Source: a virus (taxonomy: Duplodnaviria > Heunggongvirae > Uroviricota > Caudoviricetes). From it: a stretch of DNA of 48,488 nucleotides. This document shows positions 14,798 to 45,413 of the stretch, piece after piece. Both the position numbers and the translations under genes were made by a program. The notes under the pieces are model-generated. The model was given only the letters and a program-made list of their open reading frames with translations. It was not told where the DNA came from and made no database searches. Every line of letters begins with the position of its first letter. Within the stretch, counting starts at the first letter, position 1. Where the stretch lies: the IMG/VR virus record IMGVR_UViG_2597490154_000001; one strand, 5' to 3'.

Positions 14798-15041
14798 GGC
14801 TTTCGCGTCGAAAATGAGGCGAAACTGAAAACGAGATTTCATTAACAAATAAGCAACATAAAAAACGGTGGAAAACGCCCAGGAAAACATGATCTTTTGA
14901 GCGGATTTTTTAGATCCGACAATGAACGGTGATCCGGTGGTGCCGATAACGTCCATTATGTTAAATGGCCCCGTTTTTCTTGAAATTATAACTCACAGGT
15001 TATATAGTTAGTGATATAAACTACAGGTTATAGGATTGAGC

Positions 15042-15389
15042 ATGTGGACGGTACTTTTTAGCCAGCGATTTGACGGCTGGCTAAATGAGCAAGAAGACGC
15101 TCTTCAGGAAAAGGTTTTGGCTGATTTGAAAAAGCTACAGGTTTACGGACCTGAGTTACCCAGGCCATATGCCGATACCGTAAAAGGTTCTCGGTACAAA
15201 AATATGAAAGAGCTTCGCGTTCAGTTTTCTGGCCGTCCGATAAGAGCCTTTTATGCGTTCGATCCGATTCGCCGGGCTATCGTTCTTTGTGCAGGAGACA
15301 AAAGTAACGATAAGCGGTTTTATAAAAAACTGGTGCGTATAGCTGAGGATGAGTTTGCAGCACATCTGAACACACTGGAGAGCAAGTAA
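15042..15389 (+). CDS. RelE/HigB-family type II toxin (addiction module killer protein-like)
   Basis: ~115 aa; toxin-first arrangement followed by an HTH antitoxin overlapping at the stop; ORF track start 15036 is TTG, ATG at 15042. Confidence 0.6.
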   Translation: MWTVLFSQRFDGWLNEQEDALQEKVLADLKKLQVYGPELPRPYADTVKGSRYKNMKELRVQFSGRPIRAFYAFDPIRRAIVLCAGDKSNDKRFYKKLVRIAEDEFAAHLNTLESK

Positions 15390-15688
15390 TGAGAACATTA
15401 GATGAGGTGATTGCCAGCCGTTCACCGGAAAGCCAGGCGCGAATTAAAGAAATGGCAGATGAGATGATTCTTGAGGTCGGCTTGCAGATGATGCGTGAAG
15501 AACTCCAGTTATCACAAAAGCAGGTTGCTGAGGCGATGGGTATAAGCCAGCCAGCAGTAACAAAGCTGGAGCAGCGCGGAAATGATTTAAAGCTGGCGAC
15601 ATTAAAGCGTTACGTTGAAGCTATGGGAGGCAAATTAAGCCTGGATGTTGAGCTTCCCACAGGAAAACGAATAGCGTTTAACATCTGA
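15389..15688 (+). CDS. HTH (XRE-family) antitoxin, HigA-like
   Basis: 99-aa ORF with HTH (LSQKQVAEAMGISQPAVTKLE), start overlaps the toxin stop. Confidence 0.6.
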   Translation: MRTLDEVIASRSPESQARIKEMADEMILEVGLQMMREELQLSQKQVAEAMGISQPAVTKLEQRGNDLKLATLKRYVEAMGGKLSLDVELPTGKRIAFNI

Positions 15689-17340: not shown

Positions 17341-17373
17341 AAGAGAGAAAAGAGTAAGGGGCCGTAGCCCCTT
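17341..17373 (-). terminator. rho-independent terminator of the antirepressor operon
   Basis: Hairpin AAGGGGCCGTAGCCCCTT with T-run on the - strand, directly after the ant stop. Confidence 0.6.
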
Positions 17374-17377
17374 GTAG

Positions 17378-18520
17378 TTATGGTCTGCTTTTCTGTGCCA
17401 GCTTATCAGCACATGTTTTTATCAGATCCTGTAGTGTCCTGGCTGGCAGGTTTGCATCCAGTACGCTGAGTATGCTGTTGTGATCAGCCTGGTCGATTAC
17501 TTTGCCTGTCGGTGGTAGTAGCTTGAGCTGAGGATTCAGGTTTTCGTCAAAACTGATAAGTGCTCTGGCGTTTCTGAGCAGATCAAGAAGTAAGGCTGAT
17601 ATCACATCATCTTTAGTCATTGTTGGTAGATTTAGTGCCGCTTTAGTTTTCTCCGTCGCCTTGTCAAACTCTTTGATTAGTGTCTTGCGGTAGTTTGGTT
17701 CCGTTAATAGCCGATGATGTTCTGTTGCCGTTCGGATAATCTTTGTTTCCTGATACAGTCGGTTGTATAGCATTCGCTCGTATTCTGCCTTTAACACGCT
17801 GCTGATAGCGTTAAAGGCTTCAATGTAGGCCAGCTTGATATCCTTCACGCCTGGACCGTCGATACTTTCCATGAGCAAGGTAAATCCGTCTTTTGTCATG
17901 CGATAGATTGTTATTTCGCGGTCGCTTCCTTCCAGCGGTCGTTGTTCTTTAAAGAAGTGACGCGCCGCAGCCGTGCGAGGAATGCGTAACGCATCGATGG
18001 CCATAACGATGGAATTGTTTGTGGTGCTGAATGCTTGGGCAACATCGGCTGAGGTTGTGAGTGGCTCGTTGTTGCACACCTTAACGTAATACATTGGTTT
18101 AGCGTTGAGCGTATCGACAACCTCACGAGCATTGTTTGGTGAGACGGTTACGGTCGCGGCCGTTTGCGCGTTCTGGTTGAAGTAGCAGTCTTCCAGCCGT
18201 TCGAATACATCCCATGCCTGATCGGTTTCGAGCATTTTAGCGTGACGTGCAGCCCCGCGTTCGGTCCAGAGGATGAGCTTTCTAACGTTATTCGCGATGG
18301 TTTGAAAATCTCTTAAAGAGATTTTCAAACTTTGGAGATCTGTACCTTTTACAACTATGAAATGTTTTCCTTCTGTAAACCGGGACTTATTACGGTGGTG
18401 ATTTCTGTGAAGACATTCGACGCTACAGCCATATAGTTTGGCAAGCAGCTCCGTGGTGATAACGGGGAGCTGGTTATGCAGGATAGGCTGTAGGGTGTTA
18501 ACGGTCGGAAGCGTTTTCAT
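17378..18520 (-). CDS. phage antirepressor (KilA-N/ORF6N-type N-terminus with Ant-like C-terminal part)
   Basis: 380-aa ORF; N-terminal region resembles antirepressor N-domains; start overlaps the upstream small ORF (ATGA). Confidence 0.6.
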   Translation of the reverse strand: MKTLPTVNTLQPILHNQLPVITTELLAKLYGCSVECLHRNHHRNKSRFTEGKHFIVVKGTDLQSLKISLRDFQTIANNVRKLILWTERGAARHAKMLETDQAWDVFERLEDCYFNQNAQTAATVTVSPNNAREVVDTLNAKPMYYVKVCNNEPLTTSADVAQAFSTTNNSIVMAIDALRIPRTAAARHFFKEQRPLEGSDREITIYRMTKDGFTLLMESIDGPGVKDIKLAYIEAFNAISSVLKAEYERMLYNRLYQETKIIRTATEHHRLLTEPNYRKTLIKEFDKATEKTKAALNLPTMTKDDVISALLLDLLRNARALISFDENLNPQLKLLPPTGKVIDQADHNSILSVLDANLPARTLQDLIKTCADKLAQKSRP

Positions 18521-18708
18521 TTTGCACCTCCCATAACTACTTTGGTTACGAGGGAGATTTTTGCGACAGAAACAGCGTTATCGTTGCTGGCGATGCGCAT
18601 AGCTTCGCGCTCGATGATTTCAGCCAGGCGGAATTTATCGGCGTATGAGGCTTTCTTGAGAAGGATCTTTACGAGGTTGACGTAATAGTCATGGGGTAGG
18701 TTTGTCAT
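18517..18708 (-). CDS. small protein translationally coupled to the antirepressor (in the position P1 icd occupies)
   Basis: 63-aa ORF, 4-nt overlap with ant start; preceded by antisense-RNA-like hairpins. Confidence 0.4.
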   Translation of the reverse strand: MTNLPHDYYVNLVKILLKKASYADKFRLAEIIEREAMRIASNDNAVSVAKISLVTKVVMGGAK

Positions 18709-18865
18709 TGTGATGATTCCCTTAAAGGTTAAGGATACTCACCACCGTCAGGTTCCAATCATTGGGTGGTGAGACGTGCAGGGTTGGAACTACCGGACAC
18801 AATGACGAACCGGCGAGTCTTACGACTCCCCCGCACGCCCCACCATAATTTGGGTGTAGCAGTGC

Positions 18866-18960
18866 TTTACGCATAAAAAAACCGCTAACGCGGTATGCGC
18901 CATTGTGTCTACGGGGTTCCAATCCCGACCGTAGATTTTGCTACGGCTAGGAAAGTGTCC
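18866..18960 (-). ncRNA. candidate c4-like antisense RNA with its own terminator
   Basis: Hairpin 18911-18934 displays GGTTCCAATC in the loop; - strand terminator (ACCGCG..CGCGGT then T7) at 18866-18890; complementary elements at 18750-18760 and 18783-18790 in the icd-like leader. Confidence 0.35.
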
Positions 18961-19112
18961 ACCAATGGCGCATTTATGTCAATACGGCGGGATTTTAACA
19001 GAGACAACCACATAGCGTGGGTTTGAAAAACGGAATTTTCTGCTCATTAAGCGCATGATTTGACCAATCAAATTTGTTTGATACTGAATTTTGGGAATAT
19101 CATGTGAATATA

Positions 19113-19219
19113 AGGAACTTTAACGTGAGCGTTGGGAACTTAACGTGATTTATTGTTGAAAAAAGTTGCTTTGCATCCAATTTTTTGGATATGATTTGAA
19201 TGTAGGGAACTTCATTGTA
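19113..19219. promoter_or_regulatory. three direct repeats (GGAACTT(T)AACGTGA-like) around a putative promoter for gene 19282
   Basis: Repeats at 19113-19128, 19134-19148, 19205-19219; -35/-10-like TTGCTT/TATGAT between them. Confidence 0.4.
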
Positions 19220-19281
19220 TTGGATGTGGTTTCTTTTGAGAATGGAAATTGGTAGTGAATTTAATGCAGAGGAGGTAAAAA

Positions 19282-19854
19282 ATGACTGAACTGTCAAAAA
19301 ACTCATGTTTTTCAACAATTCACCTAATGATCATAAAAGAACTTAGGCTAGAAAGAGGTGTGCATCAAGGAGTGCTGGCTCAAGCGGCTGGAAAAACACC
19401 AAACGCATGGACAAAGATAGAGAACGGGCAGTCTGTATTAACGGTTGATGCTCTTTTTGGTGCTTGCTCTGCCCTTAATATTAGTCCAATGAATTTCATG
19501 TTGTTGGTAGAAAAACTGATTCCCGAATTTAATCGCTGTGGTTACTACTTTTTCCCTGGAACAATCGATCAGGATGAGGATAACCTTTTGCCTCTGATGC
19601 TGAGTTACTTCAACAGCAAGGGGTTTGAAGCATTGAGAAATAGGCCATTCGAAAGAGTTAGCATTAGCTCAATGGGATTCTCATTTGGGGGCGGCATCCC
19701 TGTTACTCCAACTGCTGTAATGTATTGTTGCGATGAAGCATATAGAAATTGGGTCGATAACGGCGCTGATATGGATAATCGAGATTATCTGGAGTCATCA
19801 ATAGGTCTTGGACGGTTTTTAATGAGTGAAGAAACAAAAAAACCGTCCTATTGA
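19282..19854 (+). CDS. HTH (XRE-like) N-terminal domain protein with ~110-aa C-terminal domain of unknown function
   Basis: 190-aa ORF with strong SD; stand-alone transcription unit with its own terminator. Confidence 0.55.
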   Translation: MTELSKNSCFSTIHLMIIKELRLERGVHQGVLAQAAGKTPNAWTKIENGQSVLTVDALFGACSALNISPMNFMLLVEKLIPEFNRCGYYFFPGTIDQDEDNLLPLMLSYFNSKGFEALRNRPFERVSISSMGFSFGGGIPVTPTAVMYCCDEAYRNWVDNGADMDNRDYLESSIGLGRFLMSEETKKPSY

Positions 19855-19868: not shown

Positions 19869-20252
19869 TGCTGATCGGATTCGCGGTCCTTTCAGCATAA
19901 CGTCGTTGTACTAATACAACCACGCAAGCACAAACAGCAACTACATTCTTACCCAACTGAGGTGAATAGTCCACTATTCATATAAAAAAATTTAGCTCAT
20001 TAGCTCATGCAAAATGAAGGTTTTTAACTTATTTACGTGTAATCTTATGTAATAAAAGCGTTTTTTATTCCTTCATTATGAAGGGTATGACGTGTAATAT
20101 GGCTTGGGGCCTTTCCGCCGATTCGCACCCGGGCACTGACTTTCAGGAAAGGATTATCCACTTGCCGTACCACGCAGGCACAAACAGCGTGCTTGCTCTC
20201 GCGTCATTTTCGTCGGTGGGGATGCCGTGAAACGGCCTGTAAGGGCCACACA

Positions 20253-20375
20253 ATGAAAAAATACTACATGTGTATTTTTATCGTTGTTACTGGGGCTTTG
20301 TTTACGCCACATGGAGAGGGTTGGAAGATTACTGATAACGCTCTGAATGTGACGATAAACATTAGCAGCAAGTAG
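20253..20375 (+). CDS. small hydrophobic protein (40 aa), function unknown
   Basis: MKKYYMCIFIVVTGALF...; SD-like AAGGG 8 nt upstream; own terminator immediately downstream. Confidence 0.35.
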   Translation: MKKYYMCIFIVVTGALFTPHGEGWKITDNALNVTINISSK

Positions 20376-20380
20376 CGATT

Positions 20381-20404
20381 AGGCCCCTTCGGGGGCCTTT
20401 TTTA
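20381..20404 (+). terminator. rho-independent terminator
   Basis: AGGCCCCTTCGGGGGCCT followed by TTTTT. Confidence 0.65.
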
Positions 20405-22188: not shown

Positions 22189-22851
22189 TCATAACCAGTT
22201 GACAACACTAACTACGCGGCCAAGAACTTTATAACGCTTAAATTCCTCGTTATTCAGATGCTTAGTGTTCATTTCAGCATCCCTTTCGGTTGACAGCATA
22301 ACAGCATTGTCACCCGGTATGACTCTACAGTGCCTCAAAACAACCAGGCCATTTCTGTCTTCAAGGGCATAGATCCCCTCATGAATCTCTGTATCGTCTG
22401 TATTAATCAGGACTTGGGAGCCAGGGGATATTGTTGGTGACATTAGCTTTAGCTCATCGTTGCTCTGGAGAACAGACAGAGACGATGGGTTGATGTTCTT
22501 GCTTCGTAGAATCTCCTGTTCTATCGCCAGCACTGGCTTTTCTCCGGCGTGCGATGCTATGTCATTTTTTATAGCTACAAGCCCAGGAATAACAGGTGCG
22601 TTAGTATTCTGGGGTGGGAACGGGTTATCTGTTAAGCACGCGATATAAGGCGCTGATGCTTTCAGGGCGTGCGCGATTTTCTTGATGGCAGGTATAGATG
22701 GTTGTCTTAATCCGGCCTCATAGTTCTGCAAGGTGCTTAAGCCTATTCCAGTGACTTGCTGGAGATCTCCGGCAGTCATGCCGGATTGTTTCCGTAGAGT
22801 CTGAATGCGCAGACCTATTTCTTTCTTGATGTTCTCGTCGTTGCTTTTCAT
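22189..22851 (-). CDS. CI-like prophage repressor (HTH plus S24 LexA-like peptidase domain)
   Basis: 220-aa ORF; N-terminal HTH; C-terminal Ser (LMSPTISPG) and Lys (RYKVLGRVV) motifs typical of autocleaving repressors. Confidence 0.8.
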   Translation of the reverse strand: MKSNDENIKKEIGLRIQTLRKQSGMTAGDLQQVTGIGLSTLQNYEAGLRQPSIPAIKKIAHALKASAPYIACLTDNPFPPQNTNAPVIPGLVAIKNDIASHAGEKPVLAIEQEILRSKNINPSSLSVLQSNDELKLMSPTISPGSQVLINTDDTEIHEGIYALEDRNGLVVLRHCRVIPGDNAVMLSTERDAEMNTKHLNNEEFKRYKVLGRVVSVVNWL

Positions 22852-31090: not shown

Positions 31091-31166
31091 TGGCCCCTTA
31101 GCTCAGTGGTTAGAGCAGGCGACTCATAATCGCACGGTCATCGGTTCAAGTCCGGTAGGGGCCACC
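31091..31166 (+). tRNA. tRNA with CAU anticodon, most like tRNA-Ile2 (lysidine) rather than initiator tRNA-Met
   Basis: Folded by hand: 7-bp acceptor stem GGCCCCT/AGGGGCC, D-stem GCTC/GAGC, anticodon loop CTCATAA, T-loop GGTTCAAGTCC, encoded CCA; G1-C72 pair excludes initiator. Confidence 0.9.
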
Positions 31167-45069: not shown

Positions 45070-45413
45070 TGAACTCCTTCAAAGAGGTTATAGCGCAAGA
45101 TATTTCTGCAATATTCCTCAATGAAAAAGAGTTTGCCGATACATATAACATAGACGGCAAGGATATCCTTGCCGTTATTGATACAGACCTTATTCATGAG
45201 CGGAATAAACGCTCATATGCTGAGTTTGCAGAGGGAATAAATCAGGGGCAAATAATATTATTTGTTTCAAGAAAAGATTTTCCTGTTCTCCCTGTCAAAG
45301 ACCAGTCAATGAAAATCAACGGTAAAAATTATATTGTTAATGAAGTATCAGATAATGTTGGTGTATTGGAAATAACTCTCACTGTTAATACTAACAGAGG
45401 AATGCCGATTTGA
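45069..45413 (+). CDS. head-tail connector/completion protein candidate
   Basis: 114-aa ORF coupled to neighbours. Confidence 0.35.
   Translation: MNSFKEVIAQDISAIFLNEKEFADTYNIDGKDILAVIDTDLIHERNKRSYAEFAEGINQGQIILFVSRKDFPVLPVKDQSMKINGKNYIVNEVSDNVGVLEITLTVNTNRGMPI

Follow-up and report, generated by a model that had tools for sequence, protein, structure and literature searches.

The DNA examined here is the IMG/VR virus record IMGVR_UViG_2597490154_000001, a stretch of 48,488 bp that we call the window, and within it a region of the minus strand that leads into and includes an antirepressor-type gene. The window has the same sequence as complete circular plasmids from E. coli, among them pEcFELIX377.1 from strain Seattle 1946, and in the region described below it is 94% identical to the Yersinia phages vB_YpM_39, vB_YpM_41 and vB_YpM_44. 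On these two grounds it is a phage-plasmid, of 48.5 kb and with an IncFII-type RepA, unlike P1; ParA and a resolvase are also among its genes. An earlier note, made from the sequence alone, had proposed that the region follows the logic of immI of P1, with an antisense RNA, a small coupled open reading frame (ORF) and an antirepressor. We examined the region with RNA family models, shuffled controls, alignment of homologous loci and comparison with published systems.

Two structured RNAs precede a small ORF and an antirepressor gene

The elements of the region are listed below from the promoter to the end of the operon. The site names a1, b1, a′, b′, a2 and b2 are those of the P1 nomenclature and were checked against the P1 GenBank annotation.

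18954-18982, minus strand: putative module promoter, with −35 TTGACA (18982-18977), a 17-nt spacer and a weak −10 GACACT (18959-18954)
18875-18947, minus strand: IsrK-like short RNA (Rfam isrK, RF01394, 67.7 bits, cut-off 50), equivalent to the a1/b1 leader of C4
18947-18928, minus strand: IsrK hairpin 1
18927-18924 / 18915-18912, minus strand: 4-bp stem of IsrK hairpin 2, loop AUUGGAAC
18922-18916, minus strand: a1, UUGGAAC, in the loop of IsrK hairpin 2
18909-18901, minus strand: b1, GACACAAUG, in the IsrK-like RNA shortly 5′ of the terminator
18894-18875, minus strand: intrinsic terminator of the IsrK-like RNA from a terminator scan, stem 18894-18881 and U-run 18880-18875 (6-7 U)
18762-18850, minus strand: C4 antisense RNA (Rfam C4, RF01695, 77.8 bits, cut-off 45, full-length to model positions 1-87)
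18844-18765, minus strand: predicted mature C4 of ∼80 nt, by homology with the annotated 77-nt C4 of P1 (mature ends from the GenBank annotation)
18845-18829 / 18783-18767, minus strand: closing stem of C4, 17 bp
18828-18815, minus strand: C4 hairpin I
18814-18792, minus strand: C4 hairpin II, with b′ in its loop
18806-18798, minus strand: b′, GUCAUUGUG, in the loop of C4 hairpin II
18790-18784, minus strand: a′, GUUCCAA, a single-stranded segment of C4
18738-18773, minus strand: a2 hairpin, 9-bp stem 18773-18765 / 18746-18738
18758-18752, minus strand: a2, UUGGAAC, in the loop of the hairpin after C4
18704-18723, minus strand: translation-initiation region of the small ORF, Shine-Dalgarno sequence (SD) AAGGGA at 18723-18718 and AUG at 18708-18706
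18712-18704, minus strand: b2, CACAAUGAC, a perfect 9-nt complement of b′ that spans the AUG of the small ORF
18517-18708, minus strand: ORF of 63 amino acids (aa), phrog_7886 (E = 2e-46), in the position of P1 icd
17378-18520, minus strand: 380-aa antirepressor-type protein, ORF6N at residues 12-96 (Pfam, 2e-17) and Rha at 155-239 (Phage_pRha, 4e-12)
17356-17373, minus strand: terminator-like hairpin that closes the operon 5 nt past the stop codon, 7-bp stem with 5 GC pairs and a T-rich tail

The IsrK-like RNA at 18947-18875 combines a score above the isrK threshold with two hairpins and an intrinsic terminator, and the claim of the earlier note that a hairpin with its own terminator lies upstream on the minus strand is thus borne out by the stem at 18927-18924 / 18915-18912 and the terminator at 18894-18875. 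A second Rfam model, the c4-a1b1 motif (RF03163), matches the same bases at 38 bits, under its cut-off of 46.7, while P1 scores 51 and Gifsy-1 48.1. The element is homologous even though it falls under the cut-off, its nucleotides being those claimed by isrK; P1 itself, scanned with the Rfam models, matches C4 and c4-a1b1 and, weakly, isrK. Upstream, all 46 homologues have the TTGAC of the −35 hexamer, which lines up with the −35 annotated for the P1 promoter P1c4/P51b. We also noted complementarity between GCGCAU (18900-18895), 5′ of the terminator stem, and AUGCGU (18874-18869), just past the U-run. Pairing of the two would give an extended helix round the terminator in read-through transcripts, and relatives seem to have equivalent pairings.

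C4, an RNA reportedly described by Citron and Schuster, is represented by a long closing stem round two hairpins, with compensatory changes in the homologues: the stem is 99.6% paired with 5 pairs doubly changed, and in hairpin I all 5 of 5 pairs are doubly changed. The fold is tRNA-like, with a minimum free energy (MFE) of −46.6 kcal/mol (z = −5.7) that was reached by none of 200 shuffled sequences, and the AUUAU/GG junction at its 5′ end is conserved with P1. Its two antisense segments each have a complementary site upstream and downstream of the RNA: a′ matches both a1 and a2 over 7 nt and b′ matches both b1 and b2 over 9 nt.

The earlier note had described a second hairpin with the same loop at 18738-18773 and a complementary element at 18783-18790, and both are there. 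The hairpin has a 9-bp stem. Around its loop is the 10-mer GATTGGAACC, of which the window has just two copies, at 18924-18915 and 18760-18751, on the same strand and 164 nt apart; a1 and a2, the target sites, correspond to the two identical GAUUGGAACC loops. The complementary element, GUUCCAAC at 18790-18783, lies inside C4, and what the note called the GTTGGAAC element is the a′ segment of that RNA. The C4 fold itself and the second set of sites (b1, b′, b2) had been missed. The role assignment of the earlier note is inverted: the true C4 lies at 18850-18762, between its two hairpins.

The 5′ arm of the a2 hairpin (18773-18765) also serves as the 3′ strand in the closing stem of C4, and only one of the two folds can form at a time. 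The helix of the a2 hairpin is 89.9% paired with 3 pairs doubly changed, and alignment column 260 covaries with column 182 in the C4 stem and also with column 292 in the hairpin arm. This dual covariation of a single column suggests that the two folds are both kept.

The six sites covary as two matching sets

For comparative analysis the two proteins led us to 93 IMG/VR loci, of which 87 have the RNA module by nhmmer. The resulting alignment (A2) has 46 rows, made up of 44 of the 45 distinct module versions together with Gifsy-1 and P1. IsrK hairpin 1 is paired in 100% of cells, with both sides changed in 5 of 7 pairs. The same holds for a1:a′, where every cell (100%) has a standard pair and 5 of the 7 pairs are doubly changed; one of its columns reads AU in 22 sequences, GC in 22 and CG in 2. 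The pairing a′:a2 is 90.2% complete, again with 5 of 7 pairs doubly changed. When the partner was shifted by 1-3 columns as a control, overall pairing dropped to 29-47%. The apparent mismatch of P1 at the a sites is an alignment artefact.

Nine types of a′ and 16 b′ loops were seen, in 22 combinations, and a1 and a2 both contain the complement of a′ in all sequences but that of locus L027 (positions 639-989). There a′ (ACGCC type) fits a1 and not a2 (GGAAC type), and b′ fits b1 better than b2. This locus is an apparent recombinant, and its C4 should not repress its own downstream gene.

For the b sites we compared the sequences one by one. Among close relatives, the nucleotides on either side of the AUG vary in step with b′ and b1, as CACAAUG/CAUUGUG, CACCAUG/CAUGGUG and CAUCAUG/CAUGAUG. 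Examples from the window and four further loci are as follows.

Window: b1 ACACAAUG, b′ CAUUGUGU, b2 CACAAUGAC
L004: b1 UCAUCAUGG, b′ CCAUGGUGA, b2 UCACCAUGA
L005: b1 UCAUCAUG, b′ UCAUGAUGA, b2 UCAUCAUGA
L080: b1 UCGAAAC, b′ GUUUCGA, b2 UCGAAAC
L070: b1 GUACGGA (as UUUACGGAG), b′ UCCGUAC, b2 GUACGGA

The b2 site lies on the start codon in the subgroup of the window, on the SD in P1 and on the SD of the antirepressor gene in Gifsy-1. In L015, a divergent member of the group with the 63-aa ORF, it is just 5′ of the SD, and in loci without a small ORF it is directly 5′ of the SD of the antirepressor gene. The concentration of change in these sites can be seen in a single comparison: between 18990 and 18700 the phage vB_YpM_41 differs from the window at 53 positions, of which 46 fall within annotated elements (the six sites, hairpin I, the a2 loop and the SD region) and 7 elsewhere.

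Predicted duplex energies gave the same picture. Cognate pairs were on average more stable than non-cognate ones for a′ with IsrK (−14.75 vs −8.21 kcal/mol), b′ with IsrK (−9.66 vs −5.65), b′ with the leader (−9.65 vs −6.40) and a′ with the leader (−9.73 vs −7.22). A ranking by whether a sequence's own probe is best gave no information, because many sequences have the same type. For the window itself, the energies of a′ with IsrK (−14.0 kcal/mol) and b′ with IsrK (−18.1) were reached by 0 of 500 shuffles each, that of b′ with the leader (−13.2) by 5 of 500 and that of a′ with the leader (−8.8) by 19 of 500. In the MFE structure of the full leader, a1/b1 pairs in cis with a′/b′, nearly continuously. 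On the Rfam scores, the shuffles and the covariation in 46 homologues, the features described here exceed chance.

The small ORF is a conserved gene coupled to the antirepressor

The 63-aa ORF has 39 homologues in Enterobacterales, mostly of exactly 63 aa, and its substitutions concentrate at the third codon position (4/4/19, 18/8/37 and 16/10/31 at positions 1/2/3 in three comparisons). It is a real conserved gene, with no Pfam match. As the earlier note had claimed, its translation is coupled to that of the antirepressor: the stop codon of the ORF and the AUG of the antirepressor gene overlap in an ATGA at 18520-18517, GGAGG stands 6 nt 5′ of this second AUG, and the GGAGGTGCnAAATGA junction is kept in homologues down to 71% protein identity.

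The 380-aa protein matches anti-repressor families of PHROG with E values down to 7e-54. Over 153 aa of its N-terminal domain it is 48% identical to AnrP (STM2616) of Gifsy-1.

In the output of some gene callers the 63-aa ORF starts farther upstream, is 95 aa long and is called “ash family protein” (L002:4225-4512; also P0001, P0003 and P0008; about 18804-18517 in the window). The match to Pfam PF10554 (Phage_ASH) in this longer version covers residues 2-39, which are the translated 3′ half of the C4 RNA and the a2 hairpin. At least at this locus, then, the name “ash family protein” is attached to a translated RNA gene.

Comparison with P1, Gifsy-1 and other systems

The leader of P1 immI is homologous to the window from the −35 of P1c4 (P51b) through the a1 hairpin, b1, the terminator-like hairpin, C4, the a2 hairpin and b2 to the start of the small ORF. 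The order a1, b1, C4 (77 nt), a2, b2 is also that of the P1 GenBank annotation, which gives the function as “repression of icd ant translation”. In both elements the antisense RNA is co-transcribed with its target, and the 4-nt overlap of icd and ant1 in P1 recurs between the small ORF and the antirepressor gene of the window. The proteins, however, differ. In BLASTP the 63-aa ORF gave no alignment to P1 Icd at E ≤ 100, and the 380-aa protein showed no similarity to P1 Ant1 (best E = 6.1); neither is related to its P1 counterpart, Icd for the small ORF and Ant1/Ant2 for the antirepressor. The likeness to immI that the earlier note had drawn thus stands for the leader, which aligns with the P1 c4 leader, and for the small coupled ORF preceding a PHROG antirepressor match, but does not extend to the proteins. 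There are further differences. The b2 site covers the start codon in the window and the SD in P1, and the specificity sequences are UUGGAAC/CACAAUG in the window and UUGACAG/GUUAGUG in P1. The P1 promoter is under a C1 operator (Op51), and no equivalent was identified in the window, where repeats in 18983-19281 were noted but not analysed. These repeats lie between the module promoter and a divergent 190-aa helix-turn-helix (HTH) gene (19282-19854) and comprise an imperfect 51-nt direct repeat (19070-19120 / 19162-19212); 3 of the 7 AAGTTCC copies of the window sit in the same interval. They may be candidate operators for the module promoter.

In the Salmonella prophage Gifsy-1, matches to IsrK and C4 are adjacent and lie directly upstream of anrP, as they do upstream of the antirepressor gene of the window, and both elements have an ATGA coupling junction and a homologous N-terminal antirepressor domain. 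The window differs in several respects. Its antirepressor is extended by a Rha domain and a long C-terminal part, and no Q-like antiterminator is present upstream. In Gifsy-1 the 45-codon orf45 runs through C4 itself and ends in an ATGA with anrP, and b2 is on the anrP SD. In the window the equivalent frame (AUG at 18846) closes after 8 codons at a UAA in the loop of hairpin I, so that the overlap of an ORF with the next RNA segment, which characterizes IsrK, is absent; coupling is through the separate conserved 63-aa ORF between C4 and the antirepressor gene, with b2 on its AUG.

The Gifsy-1 system has been studied experimentally by Hershko-Shalev et al. (2016, PMC4825925). IsrK supplied in trans raised an anrP translational fusion 139-fold and a transcriptional fusion 8-fold, and IsrK-G28A or IsrK-G31A failed to activate anrP translation (PMC4825925). 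Numbered from the start of IsrK, the pairs G28-C162 and G31-C159 that these authors mutated are a1:a′ pairs, and native-gel and compensatory-mutation data support a helix with these pairs (PMC4825925). They also report a stable processed RNA, STnc1160, at the C4 position (PMC4825925), and STnc1160 is highly transcribed in lysogens. We noted that the published orf45 coincides exactly with the frame that runs through the C4 homologue (L098:34076-34214). Its nucleotide sequence is conserved and its protein sequence is not, according to a published remark, a pattern that fits an RNA gene.

Two other systems are alike in part. In APSE phages a pair of c4 and isrK noncoding RNAs adjoins BRO-domain genes, so that both Rfam families stand beside an antirepressor-like gene as in the window; that work annotated the RNAs only and drew no link between IsrK and a1/b1 (PMC7313666). 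P4 immunity (CI RNA, seqA/seqC) is alike by description in that a small RNA is processed from the transcript of its own targets, which lie up- and downstream. The P4 CI RNA acts by premature transcription termination and controls replication genes, and in this P4 differs from the control considered here.

Proposed mechanism and alternatives

The RNA part of the region is homologous to the c4 leader of P1 and P7 and to the isrK locus of Gifsy-1. We think it probable that the region is a P1-type immI antirepressor control module, in which C4 blocks translation of the small ORF and hence of the antirepressor, and the IsrK-like RNA competes for C4. A single promoter (∼18982-18954) would start transcripts at ∼18947, with G18947 as the predicted first nucleotide. 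Most transcripts probably end at the terminator 18894-18875, giving an IsrK-like RNA of ∼73 nt that displays a1 and b1. Read-through transcripts would include the tRNA-like C4, which by homology with P1 would be excised, presumably by RNase P, as a stable RNA of ∼80 nt (18844-18765). C4 would then bind the operon leader, probably also in trans, through two segments, a′ (GUUCCAA) with a2 (UUGGAAC) and b′ (GUCAUUGUG) with b2 (CACAAUGAC) on the start codon. Initiation at the 63-aa ORF would be blocked, and since the AUG of the antirepressor overlaps the stop of the blocked ORF, the antirepressor would not be made and lysogeny would be kept. The IsrK-like RNA may compete for C4, in cis within the precursor or in trans, and so set a threshold for antirepressor expression, because it has the same two sites, close to each other and with stronger predicted pairing. 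By analogy, such a competitor role fits the 139-fold trans-activation in Gifsy-1 and the inactivity of IsrK-G28A and IsrK-G31A, and a1/b1 may act as a decoy, as a folding partner or as a modulator of the terminator. Together, the two short pairs of sites would form an exchangeable specificity code that results in heteroimmunity between related elements.

Some observations weigh against this interpretation. RefSeq annotation lists no RNA genes at the module. A generic sigma-70 scan did not call the module promoter, whose −10 hexamer is weak, and for that reason the −10 and the start site are given as predictions. In the 46-row alignment the column counts for the b sites are poor (b1:b′ 58.8% and b′:b2 49.4% paired), because these sites shift position between subgroups, and for them we rely on the comparison of individual sequences. 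The duplexes of whole C4 with whole IsrK and with the leader are marginal against shuffles (z = −2.1 and −1.5), so that significance rests on the site-level and comparative tests. In Gifsy-1, G28A in cis in a1 raised basal expression from 4 to 93 units, which does not fit a pure sponge model since such a model predicts the opposite; the authors explain their results by alternative cis structures and by orf45 being read through C4 (PMC4825925).

That explanation leads to an alternative of purely cis, riboswitch-like control as proposed for Gifsy-1, in which the a1/b1:a′/b′ helix locks the mRNA, IsrK in trans opens it and there is no processed, trans-acting C4. The MFE structure of the full leader contains this helix, the gel and mutational data from Gifsy-1 support it (PMC4825925), and the mutually exclusive, covarying a2 hairpin and C4 closing stem are also in its favor. 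We nevertheless consider it unlikely. It leaves the covariation of a2 and b2 with a′ and b′ unexplained, and in the window the a1/b1:a′/b′ pairing misses the SD and AUG of the 63-aa ORF, which b′:b2 reaches. It needs the orf45 frame, closed after 8 codons in the window, and C4 of P1 is a processed 77-nt RNA and STnc1160 a stable species. Moreover, the double mutants of Gifsy-1 restored repression only partly (224 and 327 units vs 4; PMC4825925), as expected if a′ must fit a2 as well. A P4-like control of transcription, in which pairing of C4 with a1/b1 and a2 mainly alters termination or read-through and not translation, seems to us quite improbable as the main mechanism, though it could coexist with translational control by C4. 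It draws on the position of b1, which ends 6 nt before the terminator stem, on the remarks of the Gifsy-1 authors that IsrK is structurally similar to P4 SeqA and that STnc1160 could modulate termination, and on the 8-fold rise of the transcriptional fusion (PMC4825925). Yet the translational effect in that study was far larger, the terminator scan found no terminator after a2, and b2 is exactly on the start codon in the window and on or directly 5′ of the SD in P1, Gifsy-1 and other relatives; the location of b2 thus indicates translation initiation as the target.

The proposal of the earlier note, that the RNA with its own terminator (18866-18960) is itself a c4-like antisense repressor acting on the leader of the small ORF, is highly improbable. 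This RNA is indeed a discrete transcription unit with hairpins and a terminator, and its loop is complementary to one downstream element. That element, GUUCCAAC, however, belongs to C4, and the motifs of the upstream RNA are identical, not complementary, to a2 and b2; an RNA that shares the sense of these mRNA sites cannot act as the antisense repressor of the leader. Its pairing with the leader was at the level of shuffles (reached by 122 of 500), its Rfam class is isrK or “a1, b1 targets of C4”, and its Gifsy-1 homologue activates the antirepressor 139-fold (PMC4825925).

Beyond the reading that we favor, in which C4 represses and the IsrK-like RNA competes, we tentatively suggest a fuller scheme, which is possible but carries less weight: one transcript would yield three RNAs, with IsrK/a1b1 as decoy, C4 as antisense RNA and a2/b2 as mRNA, in a circuit in which the decoy out-competes the mRNA. 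The two sites, exchangeable independently of each other, would make a combinatorial immunity code, and in this lineage b2 would have shifted to the AUG of a 63-aa gene that was newly inserted. If a decoy defined by a terminator out-competes the mRNA, the ratio of termination to read-through would decide antirepressor expression. IsrK and the a1/b1 of P1 would then be the same device, a link that we did not find in the literature examined.

Distribution and significance

C4 and IsrK are already published (IsrK in PMC4825925), as are the Rfam models of these RNAs (PMC2864571) and the occurrence of both near BRO/antirepressor genes (PMC7313666). What is new in this copy amounts to modest variations, namely an unrelated protein cargo, a b2 that covers the AUG of a separate 63-aa gene and a specificity code of its own. 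The module is widespread, with matches in 260 phage records and 259 plasmid records, and the analysis assigns a function, at the strength given above, to an unannotated 300-nt stretch of a plasmid present in the widely used E. coli strain Seattle 1946 and in many clinical isolates. The immI RNA cassette of P1 appears portable and fitted to unrelated antirepressor genes in phage-plasmids, Shiga toxin (Stx) phages and Gifsy-type prophages. The comparative data also join the Salmonella work on IsrK to the P1 work on c4, as the IsrK helix tested is a1:a′ and orf45 is the frame through C4, and the two-site code predicts mutual immunity among related elements.

A second regulatory region and other features of the window

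The earlier note had seen the module as a second immunity layer in addition to an SOS-cleavable CI-like repressor. A second layer is plausible, but the cleavable repressor was not borne out. The following protein marks the second regulatory region.

22189-22851, minus strand: CI-like HTH protein of 220 aa

In a permissive Pfam search this protein has only a sub-threshold match to Peptidase_S24 (E = 0.028), to which NCBIfam and a PDB sequence search added nothing, and BLASTP against LexA (an approximate query sequence) showed no similarity. The LexA-box pattern CTGT-N8-ACAG has a single match in the window, at 45382, and none near either regulatory region. The usual catalytic Ser and Lys positions of the 220-aa protein look substituted, as judged by eye and not with an alignment tool, and it may be a non-cleavable repressor that relies on an antirepressor for induction.

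Three further features of the window were noted. On the plus strand at 15036-15688, a Gp49/RelE-like toxin ORF (15036-15389, labelled RelE/ParE family toxin in RefSeq) is followed by an HTH antitoxin-like ORF (15389-15688). There is a tRNA gene at 31092-31164 on the plus strand (65.7 bits). A full-length match to the ryfA RNA lies at 20105-20403, also on the plus strand (134.7 bits, cut-off 80), and contains a small hydrophobic ORF (20193-20375), so that it may be a maintenance locus resembling type I toxin-antitoxin systems.

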